From NCBI GenBank assembly GCA_040396175.1, contig JBEBOZ010000005.1:20265-84264 (forward strand): a stretch of 64,000 bases of DNA. The letters run 5' to 3'. The notes below the pieces were generated by a model that saw only the letters and a program-made list of their open reading frames with translations, was not told the DNA's origin and ran no database searches. This DNA is from Comamonas sp. (GTDB lineage: Bacteria > Pseudomonadota > Gammaproteobacteria > Burkholderiales > Burkholderiaceae_C). The position numbers and the translations under genes are program-made. Shown here one piece after another: positions 18,348 to 49,960 of this stretch. Within the stretch, counting starts at the first letter, position 1. The number at the start of each line of letters is the position of its first letter.

Positions 18348-19809
18348 GCAGGCCTCCTGCGGAGCGGGGCGACTCTGCAAAGAAGAAGTCCAGATCCAGG
18401 GCCGATGGGTCGAAGGCCGAACGGGTGTGGGCGCGCATCGACGAGGCGATCAGTTCCTGGGCGTTGGCGCGCTCGAAGTCTTCGGGCACACGCTGGCCGT
18501 TGGTGATGCCGCGCAGCTGCATCTGGTGGCGCACCAGAGCGTCCAGGGCTGGACCCAGCTTCACGGCCTCGTCCACCTTGGACAGGATGGTCTGCTTGCA
18601 GCCATTGCGCTTGAAGGCACCCAGCGATTCGTCCAGCGTATCGCCCTGGCTGCCGGCGTTGACCACCAGCAGGCGTTGCACGCCAGGCAGGTCCAGCACG
18701 TCCAGGATGTCGTCCTTGCGCGGATCGCGCGGGGCTACACCGGTGGTGTCGATCAGGACCATCTTCTTGCCGGACAGCAGGCTCAGCAGGTCTTGCAGCG
18801 CGGCCTTGTCATGGGCCAGGTGGGCCACCACACCCAGCATGCGGCCGTAGGCACGCAGCTGTTCGTGGCCGCCGACGCGGTAGGTGTCCAGCGTGATCAG
18901 GCCAACATTGTGGGCGCCGTGGACCTGCGCAGCCAGGGCGGCCAGCTTGGCGGCCGTGGTGGTCTTGCCCACGCCGGTGGAACCCACGAGGGCGAACACG
19001 CCACCGGTTTCGTAGATGGAGGCCTGCTTGGCGTCGGTGTGCAGATTGCGTTCCAGCACGTTCATCAGCCACTTCAGGGCTTCGGCCGGGCCGGCGTTCT
19101 GGGGCATGCGCTCCAGCAGGGTGCGGCCCAGCGCGGGCGAGTAGCCGGCGCGGATCAGCTTGACCATCAGGTTCGAGTGCAGCGGGCTCTGGCGCGTCTG
19201 GTTCAGCCACGACAGGGTGTTGAAGCGCTCTTCAATCAGGTCCTTCATAGACTGCAGCTCACCCATCACCTGGGTGTTCAGTGCAGGGGCGGCCGGGGCG
19301 GGCTTGCGCGTCTCGACCGGCAGTTCAATGGCCATGCCGCGCAGCGGGTTGTGCTTGACCACCGTGGGGGTGGTGGGCAGCGGTGCGGTGTCGCGCACGG
19401 CATCCAGACGGTTCTTGCGGGCAAAAGTGGGCAGTGCCGGCACTTCTTCTTCCATCTGGGCATCGGGGCCACGGCGGCGCAGCATGCGTTCGCGCACATA
19501 GTCCTGGAAGGACAGGGTGCTCATGCTCAGCTGTTCGGTATCTTCTGCCACGGACTGCTTGGCCGAGGCCTGCAGCGCCTTGGGGGGGCGGGTTTCATCG
19601 GCATCGCGCGCCTGGATGGCTGCCTGCAGGCGGTTGCTGGTGCGGTTGCCTTGGTCCAGCTTGCCCAGACCGTCTTCCGACGTGGCCATGACTTCCACGC
19701 CGGTGGAGGTGGCGCGGTTGGCAAGGATCAGTGTGCCTTCCCCAAAGACGGCCCGCGCTTTGGCCAGGGCCTCACGGGAGGTGGGGGCGGTAAAGCGTTG
19801 GATGTTCAT
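18340..19809 (-). CDS. flhF: SRP-family GTPase FlhF
   Basis: GSTGVGKTTTAAKLA, DTYRVGGHEQL, DTTG, SKVDE, GQRVPED. Confidence 0.96.
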   Translation of the reverse strand: MNIQRFTAPTSREALAKARAVFGEGTLILANRATSTGVEVMATSEDGLGKLDQGNRTSNRLQAAIQARDADETRPPKALQASAKQSVAEDTEQLSMSTLSFQDYVRERMLRRRGPDAQMEEEVPALPTFARKNRLDAVRDTAPLPTTPTVVKHNPLRGMAIELPVETRKPAPAAPALNTQVMGELQSMKDLIEERFNTLSWLNQTRQSPLHSNLMVKLIRAGYSPALGRTLLERMPQNAGPAEALKWLMNVLERNLHTDAKQASIYETGGVFALVGSTGVGKTTTAAKLAALAAQVHGAHNVGLITLDTYRVGGHEQLRAYGRMLGVVAHLAHDKAALQDLLSLLSGKKMVLIDTTGVAPRDPRKDDILDVLDLPGVQRLLVVNAGSQGDTLDESLGAFKRNGCKQTILSKVDEAVKLGPALDALVRHQMQLRGITNGQRVPEDFERANAQELIASSMRAHTRSAFDPSALDLDFFFAESPRSAGGLHA

Positions 19810-21902
19810 GCGGATGCACCTTTAAGAATGGGACCAATGCGGATGGTGTGCGTTTCGGGGATCTCGCTGTGGGCGAGCACCTGCAGTCGAGGAGCGACAC
19901 GGCGCACCAACTTGGCAATGGTGTTGCGAATGGAGTCTGGAACCAGCAGGCAGGCGGGCATGCCCATTTCTTCCTGGCGGTTGGCCACTTCGGCGGCGCG
20001 CTGGGTCAGGACGTCGGCGACGCCGGGGTCCAGCGAGGGCGCTGCGGGGTTGGCCAGGGCCTGAACCAGCAGGCGTTCCAGGCCGGGCTCGATGGCGATC
20101 ACGTTCAGTTCGCGGGTCGGGCCGTAAATTTGTTGGACGATGGCGGGCGACAGCGCAATGCGCACGCGGCGGGCCAGTTCCATGGGGTCCTGGGTCGAGC
20201 CTGCATGCTCGGCCAGCGTTTCGATGATGGTGCGGATGTCACGGATGTGCACCGAGTCCTCCAGCAGCAGCTGGAGCACTTTTTGGAACGTCGTGATGGA
20301 CACCATTTTGGGAATGACTTCTTCGATCAGCTTGGGTGCCAACTTGGCAACATGCTCCACCAGCTGCTGCACCTCAGTGCGGCTGAGCAGCTTGGAAGCC
20401 TGGACTTGCATCAAGTGTGACAAATGCGTCGCCATCACAGTTTCCGAATCAACGACCGTAAAACCAGCCATTTGCGCCGCTTCCTTCTGGCGCTCATCGA
20501 TCCAGTGGGCCGGCAGTCCGAAAGCGGGGTCGGTGGTGGGGGTTCCGATCAGCGGCGTGCTGATGCCACCCGGGTTGATGGCCAAGTACATGCCGGGGAA
20601 GGCTTCGCCTTCGCCCACCATCACGCCGCGCAGGGTGATGCGGTAGGCGCTGGGCTTGAGCTCCAGGTTGTCGCGCACATGCACGGCCGGGGGCAGAAAG
20701 CCCACTTCCTGTGCGAACTTGCGGCGCACGCCCTTGATGCGGGTCAGCAGGTCGCCCTGGCGGCCCTTGTCCACCAGGGTGATCAGGCGGTAGCCCAGCT
20801 CCAGGCCCAGCAGGTCCACGGGCTGCAGGTCGTCCCAGGTGGCTTCGCCGTCGCTGGGCGCGGCCACGGGTGCGGGCGCCTGGGCCTGCTGGGAGGCGCG
20901 CTCCTGCTGGCGGCGCGAGAGCATCCAGGCCAGCCAGCCCAGCAGCGCGCCCGTGCACAGGAAAACGACGTGCGGCATGCCCGGAATGACGCCCAGCAGG
21001 CCCAGCACGCCGGCCGTGATGCCCAGTACCTTGGGCGACATGAACAGCTGCTGCGCGATCTGCTGGCCCATGTCGGTTTCCTTGCCCACGCGCGAGATCA
21101 CCATGGCCGCGGCCACCGAGATCAGCAGGCCGGGGATCTGCGCGACCAGCGCATCGCCCACGGCCAGCAGGATGTAGCTGTCGGCGGCCTGGCCGGCCGA
21201 CAGGCCGTGCTGGATCATGCCGATGGCGAAGCCGCCGATGATGTTGATCACCAGGATCAGGATGCCGGCGACCGCGTCGCCGCGCACGAACTTGCTGGCA
21301 CCGTCCATGGAGCCGAAGAAATTGGCCTCTTCCTGCACCTCGGCGCGGCGGCGCTTGGCTTCCTTTTCGTCGATCAGGCCGGCGTTCAGGTCGGCATCCA
21401 CGGCCATCTGCTTGCCGGGCATGGCGTCCAGGGTGAAGCGGGCCGAGACTTCGGCGATACGCTCGGCACCCTTGGTGATCACCACGAAGTTGATCACCAC
21501 CAGGATGGCGAACACGATCAGACCCACGGCAAAGTTGCCACCGATCAGGAAGTGGCCGAAGGCCTCGATCACCGCACCCGCCGCGCCGGGGCCGGTATGT
21601 CCTTCCATCAGCACCACCCGGGTGGAGGCTACGTTCAGCGACAGGCGCATCAGGGTGGTCAGCAGCAGCACCGAAGGGAAGGCCGCAAAGTCCAGTGGCT
21701 TGATCATGTAGGCCGCCACCATCATCACCATCAATGCAATGGCGATGTTCAGCGTGAAGAAGGTGTCCAGCAACCAGGGTGGAATGGGCAGCACCATCAG
21801 CGCCAGGATGGCAATGACCAGAATCGGGGCCGACATGCCCTGCAGCGCACTGCCATGCTTGCCTGCCATCTGCTGGATGTTCTTGATCATTGCGGAGCTC
21901 AT
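19806..21902 (-). CDS. flhA: Export gate protein FlhA
   Basis: AEVSARFTLDAMPGKQMAVDADL, GSMDGASKFVRGD. Confidence 0.98.
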   Translation of the reverse strand: MSSAMIKNIQQMAGKHGSALQGMSAPILVIAILALMVLPIPPWLLDTFFTLNIAIALMVMMVAAYMIKPLDFAAFPSVLLLTTLMRLSLNVASTRVVLMEGHTGPGAAGAVIEAFGHFLIGGNFAVGLIVFAILVVINFVVITKGAERIAEVSARFTLDAMPGKQMAVDADLNAGLIDEKEAKRRRAEVQEEANFFGSMDGASKFVRGDAVAGILILVINIIGGFAIGMIQHGLSAGQAADSYILLAVGDALVAQIPGLLISVAAAMVISRVGKETDMGQQIAQQLFMSPKVLGITAGVLGLLGVIPGMPHVVFLCTGALLGWLAWMLSRRQQERASQQAQAPAPVAAPSDGEATWDDLQPVDLLGLELGYRLITLVDKGRQGDLLTRIKGVRRKFAQEVGFLPPAVHVRDNLELKPSAYRITLRGVMVGEGEAFPGMYLAINPGGISTPLIGTPTTDPAFGLPAHWIDERQKEAAQMAGFTVVDSETVMATHLSHLMQVQASKLLSRTEVQQLVEHVAKLAPKLIEEVIPKMVSITTFQKVLQLLLEDSVHIRDIRTIIETLAEHAGSTQDPMELARRVRIALSPAIVQQIYGPTRELNVIAIEPGLERLLVQALANPAAPSLDPGVADVLTQRAAEVANRQEEMGMPACLLVPDSIRNTIAKLVRRVAPRLQVLAHSEIPETHTIRIGPILKGASA

Positions 21903-36441: not shown

Positions 36442-36479
36442 ATTCTTCTATGGAGGGCCGTTCGGCATAGCGGGAATAA
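36442..36479 (-). promoter_or_regulatory. Class-2-type promoter of flagellin 1
   Basis: Minus strand TTATTCC-N25-AAGAAT; no sigma-28 box seen on this strand. Confidence 0.55.
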
Positions 36480-42679: not shown

Positions 42680-42713
42680 GGTGGGTTCCTGATGGTGACT
42701 TGAAGATGGCGCA

Positions 42714-42805
42714 ATCGTAGGCGGGTAGGGAAAGTGCATCTGGGGGAATAAAGCGGGAAAGCCGCGCCTTATTGGGGGAACGCCGGCGGGGGGATTTCGC
42801 ATACT
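42714..42805. promoter_or_regulatory. Divergent class-2 promoter pair for fliE and fliF
   Basis: GGAATAA(42745)-N17-TTATTGG(42769); minus -10 TACGAT at 25 nt, plus -10 CATACT at 24 nt. Confidence 0.75.
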
Positions 42806-42860
42806 CGGCACCACGTTGGGCTCCGTGTCGGGCCCGCACTTTCTGTTTGTGGAAGAACCC

Positions 42861-45601: not shown

Positions 45602-46453
45602 ATGACAAGTTCCACCCACCACTACGCACGTTTCATCCCCAGCGAAGAGATCGATGCCCAGTCCGTGCGCCACTGGCAGTTCGGCGATGTACAGAAGTCC
45701 GCGCCGGGCGCTGCGCTGCAGCCCCTGCACGAGCTGGCCACGCTGACGGACCTGCTGCCACCGCCAGCCCCGCAAGGCATGGCGGCGCAGGCACTGGCCG
45801 AAGAGGCGGTGGTGGCGGAAGAGGAAAACGCCGTCCAACTGCGCGAAGAAGAGGTGCATGCCCAGCTCGAACAGGCGCGCCAGGAGGCGCATGACGCAGG
45901 CTATGAGGCCGGCATGCAGGCCGGCCATGGGCTGGGGCAGGAAGAGGGCAAGCAGCAAGCGGGCGCCGAATGGCAGCACCGTTTTGACGACTACATGGCC
46001 CAGCAAGGCCGCCAGGCGGCCGAGCAGTTGCAAGCGGTGCTCCAGGCTGCGCAGCGCGACGTGCAGGGCATGCAGCAGCGCATGGCGCCGGATGTGTTGC
46101 AACTGGCCTGCGATATTGCGCGCCAGGTGGTGCGGCAGGAGCTGCGCAGCAATCCCCAGGCCCTGCTGCCGGTGGTGCGCGAGGCGCTGGACATGATGTC
46201 GGCCGAATCCAAGCCCGCCACGGTGCGCCTGAATCCCCAGGATTGGGAGCGCCTGCAGGAGCCCTTGAAGGCCGCCCACCCGCAGCCCAAGATCGAATGG
46301 CTGGCGGATGCCAGTGTGAAGCCAGGCGACTGCCTGGTGGAAAGCGCCGGGGCCCAAGTGGATGGCAGCCTGGAGCGCCGCTGGCAGCGTGCCGTGGCCG
46401 CGCTGGGTCTGGTGTCCACCTGGTACGACGGAGCACCTGCCCATGGCCAATGA
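45602..46453 (+). CDS. fliH: FliH
   Basis: GxxxG repeats ([14 protein letters not shown]), VRLNPQD, GDCLVES. Confidence 0.92.
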
Positions 46454-47852
46454 CACCGATATGCCCGTGGCCGATCAGCTGCAGCAATTCTTGCGCTTGG
46501 GCAGCGAACGGTTGCGCCAGCCAGTGCCGCTGCACAGCCACGGAACGCTCACCCGCCTGACGGGCCTGGTGCTGGAAGCGTCGGGCCTGCGCGTGCCGGT
46601 GGGTTCGCAATGCCATCTGCAGATGCCGGGGCAGGAGCCGGTGCTGGCCGAGGTGGTGGGTTTTGCGGGCGACCGCGCCTTTCTGATGCCGGCGGGGGAT
46701 ATCCAGGGCTTGTCTTGCGGTGCGACCGTGACACCGGCCGAGCCCTATGTGCCGCCGTTGCAGCTGGGCGATACCGAAGTGCCGGTGCTGACCAAAGGCG
46801 TGCTGCGGCTGCCCATGGGAGATGGCCTGCTGGGGCGGGTGGTGGATTCGCAAGGCGTTCCGCTGGACCATGCCGGCCCGCTGGCGAATGTGCAGGCCGA
46901 GACCCTGGACCGCGAACCCATCAATGCCATGGAGCGTGCCCCTGTGCGCGAAAGCCTGGACACCGGTGTGCGGGCCATCAACGCCTTGCTGACCGTGGGG
47001 CGTGGGCAGCGTCTGGGTCTGTTCGCGGGTTCTGGCGTCGGCAAATCGGTGCTGCTGGGCATGATGGCCCGCTATACCAAGGCCGATGTCATCGTGGTGG
47101 GCCTGATCGGCGAACGGGGCCGCGAAGTCAAGGAATTCGTGGAAGATATTCTGGGGGCGCAGGACCGCTCGCGCGCCGTGGTGGTGGCAGCGCCGGCCGA
47201 TGCGCCGCCGCTGCTGCGCATGCAGGGCGCCAATTACGCCACTGCCATTGCCGAGCATTTCCGCGACAAGGGCCAGCATGTGCTGCTGCTGATGGATTCG
47301 CTCACGCGTTACGCCCAGGCGCAGCGCGAGATCGCCTTGGCGATTGGCGAACCACCGGCCACCAAGGGCTATCCGCCGTCGTGTTTTGCCAAGCTGCCCG
47401 GCCTGGTGGAGCGCAGCGGCAACGGCCTGCATGGCGTGGGCTCGATCACGGCGTTCTATACCGTGCTGTCCGAAGGCGACGACCAGCAGGATCCCATTGC
47501 CGATGCGTCGCGCGCCATTCTGGACGGGCACTTTGTGCTGTCGCGTGCGCTGGCGGAGCAGGGGCATTACCCGGCCATCGACATCGAGCAATCCGCGTCG
47601 CGGGTCATGCACAACGTGGTCACGCGTGAGCACTTCGACCTAGCTAGGCGGTTTAGGGCTGTCTATTCCTGCTATCAAAAGAGTAGGGATTTGATACAAG
47701 TAGGGGCTTATATGAGTGGCTCCGATCCCGCAGTGGATGAAGCCATTCGGCTGCAGCCCTCCATGGTGCAGTTCCTGCAGCAAACCATGTTTGAGGCGGC
47801 GCCCATGGAACAGAGTCTGTTGGACATGGCTGCGGTCCTGGAACAGCAGTGA
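46443..47852 (+). CDS. fliI: Export ATPase FliI
   Basis: [28 protein letters not shown]. Confidence 0.97.
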
Positions 47853-47872: not shown

Positions 47873-48337
47873 ATGTCATCACTTCACGCCTTGATGGTGG
47901 CCATTGAAATGGCCACGCGCAAACGCGATGAGGCCCGCCAGGCCTTGCGCGAGCGCCAGCGTGCGCATGCGGCTGCACAGTCCCAGATGGAGCAGCTGGA
48001 AAGTTACACGGAAGAAATGCGCCAGCGCTGGGCGCCGCAGGAAGGGGCCGAGCTGAAGCTGGAGGTGATGTACCACCACGAGCAGTTCATGGCGCGACTG
48101 CAGCATGCGATCGGTTTACAGACCCGGGTGATGCAGGACCAGGCGATCCGCCTGGAGGCTGCCCAGAAGGCCCTGATGGCCACCGAGCTGCGCCTGTCCA
48201 GCCTGAACAAGGTGGTGGAGACGCGCCGCCGTGACATCGCGCTGGCACAACTGCGCCGGGAACAGAAACAAACGGACGAGCGTGCTGCGCTGCAGTTCAT
48301 CGGCCGCACTTTCGGCATGCAGTTCCAGGAGGCCTGA
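47873..48337 (+). CDS. fliJ: FliJ
   Basis: Coiled coil, REQKQTDERA, follows fliI. Confidence 0.92.
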   Translation: MSSLHALMVAIEMATRKRDEARQALRERQRAHAAAQSQMEQLESYTEEMRQRWAPQEGAELKLEVMYHHEQFMARLQHAIGLQTRVMQDQAIRLEAAQKALMATELRLSSLNKVVETRRRDIALAQLRREQKQTDERAALQFIGRTFGMQFQEA

Positions 48338-48339
48338 GC

Positions 48340-49719
48340 ATGGAGACATTGCCATCCACACCGGTCCCCGGCAAGCGCGCCACGGCCGCAGAGGGGCTGG
48401 CTGCCACGCAGCGCAAGCCGCGGGCTGCAGAGGGTGACAGCGACAGCGCGGGGCAGACCTCTGCTGCTGGCTTTTCCCGGCTGCTGCAGGCTGCCGCACA
48501 ACCGGAAGGCAGCGATGCTGCGTTGACGGATGTGGGTGCGATGGGAGTAGACCCCAGCCTCGGGTTGACAGTGCAGCAGCCGCTGCCGCAACCGGAGGTC
48601 GTGGTGGAGGCGGATGCGACGTCCATGACCATGATGGTGGGCGATGCGGCCTGGACGGTGCAAAGCCTGGTGGGACAGACTGCCCGCATGGACCAGTCCG
48701 CCGATGTGGCATTGCGCAATGGCTCTCATCTGCAGACGCGGATGGATGCGGGCGACCCCTTGGGTTTGATGCGCAGTGCGGCCCAGAGCGCGCTGGGCGC
48801 TGCATCCCAGGTGCCGGTGGTGGCGCAGGGCGTAGCCCAGGCTTTGGGCGGTGGCGTGCTGCAGGCGGTGGCACAGGGCGATGTGGCCGGGGCTGCCGCA
48901 TGGAATGCCGTCAGCGATACCGCACAGTCCGTGGTGGATGCCATGGCCGATGCCATGAAGTCTGACGACGGTGACGCGCTGTCGCGCGGCGAGCGCGGCA
49001 GCGAAGGGCGTGTCAGCCTGCAAGGCCAATGGACGGCCACCGACCGCCAAGCGCAGCCTGCCGAGGTGATGCAGCGCCTGCTGGGGCAGATGTCGCAATT
49101 CCTGTCGGCCACGGGCGCCACTGAGGCCGCGGGGCTGCGCCGTGCCGGCAGCAAATCGGTCGATGATACGGCCGCTTCTGCCCAGGATGCTGCCGCCGTG
49201 CCTCCAGGCGCCGGGATTGGCGCTGGAACAGGGCGTTTGCAGGACAACGCCGTGGCGCAGGCCGCCGCCGGCCAGCAGACGTCCAACGGAGATGCGCAGG
49301 GTGCGCAGGCCGAGCCGGACATGGCGTTCTGGATGAATTCCCGCCAGCAACGCGCCGAAGTGGTGCTGGACCGGGACGGCGCGCCGGTCCGCGTGCAGGT
49401 CACCATGGAAGGCAGTACCGCCCATGTGACGTTCCGCAGCGACGAGCAGGCCACCCGGTCCATGCTGGATGCCAGCGTGGCCCAGCTGCGTGACATGCTG
49501 GCCGCCCAGGGGGTGGAGCTGGCAGGGGTGCAGGTGGATGCGCAGGCCGGAGGCCGCCAGCAAGGCGATTCCTCTGGTGCGCAGGAGGCTTTCATGCCCG
49601 AGGGCGCGCGCCGCGTGCGGTTGCCATCGCAGGCGGGGGCCGAGCAGACGCCCGGCCTGCAGCGTGCGGGCAGCGGCAGCGGCAGCGGCAGCGGCCAAGG
49701 GGTCGATATTTTTGCGTGA
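48340..49719 (+). CDS. fliK: Hook-length control protein FliK
   Basis: Low-complexity N-terminus, C-terminal VRVQVTMEG...LRDMLAAQGVEL, terminal VDIFA. Confidence 0.8.
   Translation: METLPSTPVPGKRATAAEGLAATQRKPRAAEGDSDSAGQTSAAGFSRLLQAAAQPEGSDAALTDVGAMGVDPSLGLTVQQPLPQPEVVVEADATSMTMMVGDAAWTVQSLVGQTARMDQSADVALRNGSHLQTRMDAGDPLGLMRSAAQSALGAASQVPVVAQGVAQALGGGVLQAVAQGDVAGAAAWNAVSDTAQSVVDAMADAMKSDDGDALSRGERGSEGRVSLQGQWTATDRQAQPAEVMQRLLGQMSQFLSATGATEAAGLRRAGSKSVDDTAASAQDAAAVPPGAGIGAGTGRLQDNAVAQAAAGQQTSNGDAQGAQAEPDMAFWMNSRQQRAEVVLDRDGAPVRVQVTMEGSTAHVTFRSDEQATRSMLDASVAQLRDMLAAQGVELAGVQVDAQAGGRQQGDSSGAQEAFMPEGARRVRLPSQAGAEQTPGLQRAGSGSGSGSGQGVDIFA
49669..49695 (+). repeat. (GGCAGC)4.5 in-frame tandem repeat in fliK
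   Basis: Read directly; encodes GSGSGSGSG. Confidence 0.9.
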
Positions 49720-49899: not shown

Positions 49900-49960
49900 G
49901 GGATTGGGCGATGTTTCGGCGCTTTATTCTGGCTATGATTTCGACCGTGCCCGGAATAAT
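49900..49960 (+). promoter_or_regulatory. Class-2 promoter of the fliL operon
   Basis: GGGATTG-N17-TTATTCT-N24-AATAAT. Confidence 0.65.

Follow-up and report, generated by a model that had tools for sequence, protein, structure and literature searches.

In Salmonella, the class 3 promoter of flgMN lies inside the flgA coding region and depends on sigma-28. In Pseudomonas putida, the promoter PflhF lies inside the flhA coding region and drives flhF-fleN-fliA; this promoter (TGGAACA-N4-TTGCT) was shown experimentally to depend on sigma-54 and FleQ (PMC6424431). Further internal flagellar promoters of P. putida were located in the coding sequences upstream of parC and cheA (bioRxiv 10.1101/2021.08.29.457346). 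For synonymous rare-codon clusters, Chaney et al. (2017) reported conservation of position across distant homologs, with rarity and not identity being kept (PMC5438181). The element analyzed here is an AT-rich patch of rare codons within fliI, the gene of the flagellar export ATPase, in a 64,000-nucleotide (nt) stretch of a Comamonas genome; this whole stretch is referred to as the window, and all coordinates follow its numbering. The literature search yielded no description of a comparable element within fliI or ahead of fliJ, nor anything on the FlhDC regulon of Comamonas.

The patch is a candidate new member of the embedded-promoter kind. Like PflhF, it would be a promoter (here a predicted one) towards the 3' end of a gene for flagellar export, providing extra transcription of the distal genes of the operon. 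Unlike PflhF, it has no GG-N10-GC, lies in another gene, occurs in part of one genus only and is predicted from sequence. The patch and the Salmonella flgMN promoter both lie in the frame of the preceding gene, but the patch is without TAAA-N15-GCCGATAA. Like the clusters of Chaney et al., it is a rare-codon cluster at one position of a protein family; however, the patch conserves identity base for base, and in one clade only.

Comparison of Comamonas genomes showed that the patch is very probably a selected nucleotide-level element within the fliI frame. The assembly under study (G000) consisted of 4.49 megabases in 251 contigs and was 82% complete. The gene and the parts of the patch were located as follows:
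46362..47852, plus strand: fliI, flagellar export ATPase and host gene of the patch (NCBIfam FliI_clade1, 632.7 bits with a cut-off of 619.1; match from residue 61)
47640..47711, plus strand: AT-rich rare-codon patch of 72 nt (24 codons), in frame within fliI
47640..47648, plus strand: 5' block YTAGCTAGR of the patch, with TAGCTAG invariant in the 23-species alignment
47688..47704, plus strand: invariant 17-mer GATTTGATACAAGTAGG of the patch

The patch as a whole had 43% G+C, compared with 65% for the genome. The lowest 60-nt G+C in the patch area was 0.433 versus 0.649 genome-wide, and this was the most AT-rich stretch of the GC-rich fliI. Codon shares among synonyms were calculated with about 3100 open reading frames (ORFs) of the same assembly, all with high G+C at the third codon position, as the reference. 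CTA made up 0.7% of the Leu codons genome-wide, and the shares of the other patch codons were 3.6% for AGG (three times in the patch), 3.0% for ATA, 3.5% for GTA, 6.7% for GCT (three times) and 4.9% for AGT. The rare-codon excess was significant, with a z of -5.4 for the 26-codon rarity score. Only 243 of 1.1 million windows scored as low as the patch, and the lowest ones listed were mostly ORF-calling artefacts (5' ends or intergenic DNA). Two other apparent intragenic AT patches in G000 (C8 and C144) were in fact intergenic DNA inside over-extended ORF calls.

The patch had been pointed out in an original prediction made from the letters of the window, and the sequence, frame and codons quoted there were exact, with the patch start at 47640 in frame with the fliI ORF. 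The G+C contrast was reproduced by recount (26/60 at 47640-47699, 37/60 in the 60 nt just before), and the protein, described as staying a typical FliI, exceeded the FliI_clade1 cut-off with the score listed above. The hexamer TACAAG, given at N25, was found 25 nt past CTATTCC, and TTGATA-N17-TAAACC was found on the minus strand at 47678-47650. The near-identical half-sites were also present: CTATTCCTGCTAT was located at 47663-47675, and YTATTCNNGCTAT occurred upstream of flagellin 1 and fliL as well. The whole assembly held three copies of YTATTCNNGCTAT, all within the window (patch, fliL and flagellin 1).

The 17-mer GATTTGATACAAGTAGG was found once per genome in 23 of 77 Comamonas species genomes (21 exact, 2 with one mismatch), including C. 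aquatica NBRC 14918, C. halotolerans and C. denitrificans CCUG 44425, and every copy examined in the carriers was located in fliI. Among the 62 Comamonas species genomes with fliI, 23 had the patch, while it was lacking in the 28 other aligned Comamonas fliI genes. The two classes had no intermediates: the G+C of the 28 codons around the patch was 0.39-0.48 in the 23 carriers and 0.61-0.71 in the 28 others examined. A maximum-likelihood FliI tree was built without the patch columns, leaving out two carriers with partial sequences; the 21 full-length carriers formed one clade with a support of 99/100, and the distribution of the patch on this tree needs only one change.

Outside this clade, the same peptide was encoded by ordinary GC-rich codons in 20 further genera of the family, and the exact 17-mer was absent from 400 other genomes covering about 200 other genera of the family. 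At least 120 stretches were obtained when 185,579 species genomes were scanned. Among the 120 listed, 6 were in a fliI-like gene; five of these 6 came from Comamonas or Comamonas-like genomes, and the sixth, in a fliI of Myxococcales that otherwise has nothing of the patch, was a match by chance. The peptide was near-identical in both Comamonas classes, ending in [R/C]YQK[S/G][R/K]DL[I/V]QVGAY, which means that synonymous changes and a few conservative ones produced the patch, rather than import of a foreign protein segment. The patch is neither an assembly error nor foreign DNA.

The clade consensus of the patch in the 23 species was YTA GCT AGR CGN TTT AGR GCN GTY TAT TCS YGC TAT CAA AAR AGY ARR GAT TTG ATA CAA GTA GGN GCT TAY. 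Synonymous diversity, measured in 20-codon windows along the codon alignment of the 23 carriers, reached the gene minimum over the patch (0.20 versus a mean of 0.42; next region 0.27) and was back to 0.49 directly past it. The value of 0.20 understates the constraint, because AGA/AGG and TTA/CTA swaps count as diversity. Between the two halves of Comamonas, 10 near-fixed differences were found in the 24 patch codons, all from GC to AT; elsewhere in fliI there were 14 in the other 416 codons, 5 of them from GC to AT. The local excess of fixed silent changes at the patch was 12-fold. This is a burst on the stem branch, then freezing.

The codons TTG, ATA, the first GCT, TTT, the first two TAT and the second CAA never changed in the clade, and GTA (to GTT), GAT and the last GCT were changed in one species each. 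TTG never became TTA or CTA, ATA never became ATT and the first GCT never became GCA, though equally rare synonyms exist. The freely varying codons within the patch were mostly common ones (CGG/CGC, GCC, GTC, TCG and GGN, in the consensus CGN, GCN, GTY, TCS and GGN), and transversions were common at the free sites. The amino-acid changes of the clade were also A/T-ward: R to K (AAR), G to S (AGY) and V to I (ATA). What is constrained is thus the identity of particular bases rather than the rarity of codons. The suggestion of a second code layered on fliI thus received strong support, with near-invariant silent sites in a 23-species clade whose flanks vary freely; the reading had been made to depend on the presence of the patch in relatives, and it was found in 23 species of one monophyletic group.

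A half-way version was found in fliI of a sister genus of the same family, g182 (L200 at about 2590-2680, and L201; genomes G257 and G400). It reads TTG GCG AGG CGT TTT CGT GCC ACT TAT TCS CGS TAT CAA AAA AGC CGG GAY TTG GTA CAA GTM GGG, and its region had a G+C of 0.50-0.54, compared with 0.61 in the flanks. The 5' block YTAGCTAGR was missing from it. A quick FliI tree placed g182 outside Comamonas as a whole, so either the C. testosteroni-type half of Comamonas has lost the element or it arose twice.

The patch can tentatively be read as a sense-strand internal promoter of the local class-2 type (sigma-70 with an activator). The parts and presumed targets of this promoter are the following:
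47664..47675, plus strand: TATTC-NN-GCTAT box, with similar boxes at 49925 (upstream of fliL) and at 36478 on the minus strand (upstream of flagellin 1)
47692..47700, plus strand: candidate extended -10 TG-A-TACAAG, with the hexamer at 47695-47700, 26 nt after the TATTC box
47873..48337, plus strand: fliJ, the first gene 3' of fliI and presumed target of the internal promoter (NCBIfam flagell_FliJ, 57.4 bits with a cut-off of 50.45)
48340..49719, plus strand: ORF at the fliK position, between fliJ and the fliL promoter, assigned by position only

In this promoter model, the TATTC-NN-GCTAT box would occupy the activator position, the activator presumably being FlhDC, and would be followed by an A-rich spacer of 26 nt that is free to vary and by TG-n-TACAAG as the extended -10. 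Transcription would start near 47707-47710 and read through the last 145 nt of fliI into fliJ and fliK, which would provide extra fliJ and fliK transcription on top of the fliF operon promoter.

The sites at fliL, flagellin 1, fliE and fliF and a site inside flhA consist of a [T/G]ATT[C/G] box, 25-26 nt and a hexamer, and the geometry of the patch (26 nt) matches them. The upstream regions of fliL, flagellin 1, fliE and fliF have in common [C/G]C(T)TTATT[C/G] and, 25-26 nt further on, a hexamer with A2 and T6; the comparison hexamers were AATAAT, AAGAAT, TACGAT (fliE) and CATACT (fliF). Within the patch, the box and TG-n-TACAAG-TAGG were invariant, the variable codons (AAR AGY ARR) lay in the spacer, and conservation stopped about 10 nt past the hexamer, at the predicted position of the start site. 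TCCAGG becomes TACAAG through two silent changes, ATC to ATA and CAG to CAA. In g182, the sole base of the 17-mer that always differed was the "n" of TGn, and one of the two g182 species had two further changes; the -10 motif was retained as TGGTACAAG, and the GTTT and TATTC parts were also present there.

The fliL promoter gave a clear phylogenetic footprint in 21 Comamonas. This footprint reads GGCTATG in 13 of 15 aligned patch-clade species (compare GCTAT in the patch), GGTTAT in L212 and CTATA in L219, versus GGCAAT or GGACAT in the non-patch species. FlhC was present in complete Comamonas genomes of both clades, and class-2 promoters here are therefore expected to be of the FlhDC/sigma-70 type. 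FlhC (PF05280) was present in five complete or near-complete relatives and was not found in G000, which is 82% complete; its flhC gene probably lies in the unassembled part.

A two-block position weight matrix (PWM) was built from five sites, with the patch excluded. The patch of G000 scored 16.2 bits, and only 36 of 8.9 million genome positions scored as high, five of them being training sites. Leave-one-out scores of the training sites were 10-31 bits, and all 23 carriers scored 16-24 bits. Random AT-rich synonymous recodings of the patch peptide matched the real score in 0.1-6.6% of trials. A PWM without the flhA site gave the same picture.

Several observations weigh against the promoter. 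The hexamer TACAAG has A at -11 but G at -7, where all five comparison hexamers have T, and this G is fixed because it is the first base of a conserved Val codon. A sigma-70 consensus scan reported no site in the patch. The patch has a single half-site-like box, without the inverted partner present in the fliE/fliF region. In the same PWM register, the non-patch orthologs scored 3-18 bits and overlapped the carriers, because A-V-Y-S-R-Y and F already spell much of the box. The other genome-wide matches at the score level of the patch were mostly noise, and the PWM rests on 4-5 sites, of which the flhA site is possibly a sigma-54 site instead. The invariant TAGCTAG falls outside every model tried, the promoter included. 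The order and spacing of fliI and fliJ were the same in both clades, while the patch is clade-only.

The class-2 half-site named in the original prediction is not the distinguishing feature of the patch. The sequence TATTCNNGCTAY is spelled by the conserved peptide V-Y-S-R-Y and was also found in the non-patch sequences L015, L017, L020 and L060; it contained one clade-specific silent change (TAC to TAT), and the box is mostly dictated by the codons for Y-S-R/C-Y. Among the three mechanisms proposed there, the sense promoter is the best, still tentative, fit (geometry, conservation pattern and modest support from the PWM), and the antisense promoter and the translational pause fit worse.

Other promoter classes were rejected by inspection of both strands. 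For sigma-54, GG-N10-GC (TGGCAC-N5-TTGC), the nearest GG/GC pairs were 1-2 nt out of register. For sigma-28, TAAA-N15-GCCGATAA, only GATA of the -10 was present, with no TAAA at the right distance.

Two of the alternatives make use of an inverted repeat, which was identified by a repeat search in G000 and G013 together with the alignment:
47673..47696, no strand assigned: inverted repeat TATCAAA-N10-TTTGATA

The first, which is rather unlikely, is an RNA-level element in the fliFGHIJK messenger RNA (mRNA). An A/U-rich, weakly structured segment, maybe with a hairpin UAUCAAA-loop10-UUUGAUA, would serve as an RNase E-type processing site or a site for an RNA-binding protein and would set the stability or translation of fliJ-fliK apart from fliFGHI. 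The arms of the repeat were conserved and the 10-nt loop was variable, and the consensus structure of RNAalifold included the hairpin; however, compensatory changes were found in 0 of 24 predicted pairs. Two of three arm variants (CAA to CAG in two species, ATA to GTA in g182) keep G-U pairs in the sense and not in the antisense RNA, but the arm variant GAC (L051, L201) would break the pairing. The A-U stem of 7 base pairs (bp) was marginal (-2.7 to -3.4 kcal/mol) and missing from the minimum-energy fold of G000, and the folding energy was equal to that of shuffles (z = -0.06 and +0.60 for the two strands). The non-patch orthologs fold here at -14 to -17 kcal/mol while the patch folds at only about -3 kcal/mol, so that the patch clade has an open mRNA stretch here, a point in favor of this alternative. 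Against it, a search of Rfam at a permissive threshold gave chance-level hits only and no match below E = 0.5, CsrA GGA motifs were missing in 8 of 23 species, and the 5' half of the patch is left unexplained.

In non-patch orthologs such as L009, L011, L015 and L057, the D-L-V-Q-V codons GAC CTG GTC CAG GTC at the position equivalent to 47688-47702 form a perfect 15-bp palindrome, GACCTGGTCCAGGTC. The hairpin of this palindrome was present across the family, and its replacement in the patch clade barely folds.

The second alternative, distinctly unlikely, is a DNA operator that does not act as a promoter. TATCAAA-N10-TTTGATA and its AT-rich flanks would be bound by a dimeric DNA-binding protein or a nucleoid-associated one, which, as a roadblock or silencer, would modulate how much transcription passes from fliI to fliJ-fliK. 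A pattern of conserved 7-bp arms around a variable spacer is typical of dimer-binding sites, the constraint is base-specific, and the site lies in the most AT-rich stretch of a GC-rich gene. However, the palindrome and the 17-mer are single-copy in G000, and no operator regulon is definable because there is no second copy; the integration host factor consensus (minus strand) fits only 15 of 23 species, and no candidate regulator emerged. A search of G000 for a second copy, a paralog conversion or a small-RNA partner gave no match or complement longer than 13 nt. Since the 17-mer and the palindrome are unique and no complement of 14 nt or more exists, the patch is neither a dispersed motif nor an obvious small-RNA target; a dispersed motif, such as an uptake sequence or a motif like repetitive extragenic palindromes, was also rejected by the presence of the 17-mer once per genome in all 23 carriers.

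A translational pause is improbable. The rare codons (YTA, AGR two or three times, ATA and GTA) would slow ribosomes just after the FliI ATPase domain emerges, as an aid to folding or assembly or for coupling to fliJ. The codon rarity is extreme, AGA/AGG and TTA/CTA swap freely while staying rare, and rare-codon clusters with conserved positions have been described (PMC5438181). The probability of this alternative is lowered because base identity rather than rarity is constrained: the identity of the codons was conserved, several common codons (CGG/CGC, GCC, GTC, TCG) lie inside the patch, and the change from R to K uses the non-rare AAA/AAG, which points to nucleotides. Other lineages with the same protein segment use no rare codons here.

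An antisense promoter that yields RNA complementary to the fliI mRNA is quite improbable. It would consist of the following site:
47650..47678, minus strand: promoter-like site TTGATA-N17-TAAACC
Its -35 matches the consensus at 5/6 positions and was kept in 21 of 23 species, and its 17-nt spacing is fixed by the reading frame. The -10, however, matches at only 3/6 positions and is without the final T; the sigma-70 scan gave no report, the class-2 PWM gave 0-5 bits on the minus strand, and the 17-mer, the strictest part of the patch, would sit upstream of the -35 and be unexplained.

A functionless relic, whether of foreign DNA, of a gene-conversion tract or of an intein or homing-endonuclease site since recoded or vacated, would account for the sharp boundaries and the foreign-looking composition but is hardly credible, given that the peptide equals that of the non-patch relatives without a foreign protein signature, that the genome has no second copy or paralog tract, that no intein-sized insertion was found in any fliI of about 120 genomes examined and, as weak evidence, no FliI-like protein above 868 amino acids was found, that the silent sites are under purifying selection in 23 species and not drifting to GC, and that a half-way stage exists in the sister genus.

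Further readings at the level of translation were rejected. As for a slippery or frameshift site, the A-run CAA AAA AGC is out of the slippery register, and G000 has only 4 A's there. An internal translation start would use the Shine-Dalgarno-like AGGAG, but only in some species does GTG or ATG come next in frame. An overlapping ORF on either strand is unlikely because the silent-site constraint is limited to 72 nt.

As a guarded interpretation, the patch might record how a regulatory element came into being within a gene that is essential and highly conserved, with the stages still visible. In the first stage, the ancestral GC-rich codons found in about 20 genera would by chance spell part of the fliL/flagellin-1 box through V-Y-S-R-Y. 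The second stage would be the half-way version of g182, with the box, the A-rich spacer and TGGTACAAG. In the third stage, the full 72-nt element would have been fixed and then frozen in one Comamonas clade. If this is true, selection for a promoter or operator overrode codon preference, changed three FliI residues and rewired the expression of fliJ and of the hook-length gene fliK. Annotation misses regulatory signals that are hidden in reading frames, and their age is hard to establish; here, the states before, between and after survive in sequenced relatives. If the patch is a promoter, it would offer a tractable case of promoter birth by synonymous recoding in a flagellar operon and a means of adjusting FliJ/FliK dosage and hook length; otherwise, it would still be a specific 72-nt sequence read by something in the cells.

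A second AT-rich element of the window was located inside flhA (20405-20475, minus strand); its silent sites were invariant across 30 Comamonas from the two clades. One reading of this element is GATTC, 26 nt and CACACT, and another is a sigma-54-like TGGCGAC-GCAT-TTGTC. Judged by its sequence, it may be a sigma-54 promoter homologous to PflhF of P. putida (compare TGGAACAgattTTGCT, PMC6424431). The flhA element and the patch are alike in being about 70 nt long, AT-rich and composed of rare codons, in lying in a flagellar export gene, and in having a [G/T]ATTC box with 26 nt between it and a hexamer; with the two aligned in one register, 13 of the 19 nt up to and including the box are identical. 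They are unlike in that the flhA element is present in both Comamonas clades, whereas the patch is young and clade-specific. The TTGATRCAAGT common to the two was rejected as a link and is probably a coincidence: relative to the box, its position is shifted by 10-11 nt, and in each gene it encodes L-[IM]-Q-V. Together, the two elements make sharp AT-rich rare-codon patches in conserved genes of GC-rich genomes a workable search image for embedded signals.

The divergent control region of fliE and fliF (42680-42860) contained two inverted TTATT boxes, which can be written as AATAAAGCG ... CGCCTTATT or as GAATAAAGCG ... CGCCTTATTG. A -10-like hexamer follows each box after 25-26 nt (TACGAT on the fliE side, CATACT on the fliF side). 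From this arrangement, the boxes look like one shared activator site of the FlhDC type serving both promoters. The inverted boxes are reminiscent of the E. coli FlhD4C2 half-site AAATA(A/G)CG.

The NCBIfam profile search placed fliF, fliG and fliH upstream of fliI. The ORF at the fliK position gave no NCBIfam match; its C-terminal end aligned among relatives upstream of fliL. The listed fliI ORF is probably too long at its 5' end, with the true start at ATG 46443 (MANDTDMPV...): residues 1-27 lie where the ORF overlaps the end of fliH, and more distant relatives match from about residue 29-40 onward. The "1 TAG" flags in the fliI of some relatives probably fall in the stretch upstream of the true start, because they vanish with a query starting at residue 60. 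The gap between fliI and fliJ was 13-70 nt in both clades, and no difference in the fliI-fliJ junction or gene order was found between the clades, save for an insertion after fliI in two species. These two species bear the patch (L053 and L040; genomes G083 and G020), and the insert, between the fliI stop and fliJ, carries GCCGATAA, the sigma-28 -10 consensus.

A second FliI paralog with 54% identity was found in the assembly (G000:C29:12842-14086), on the same contig as a second FliA (18425-19054), which suggests a second flagellar or related export system. The FliI paralog was also present in G007 (patch clade), G023 (non-patch) and G035, and its distribution was independent of the patch.

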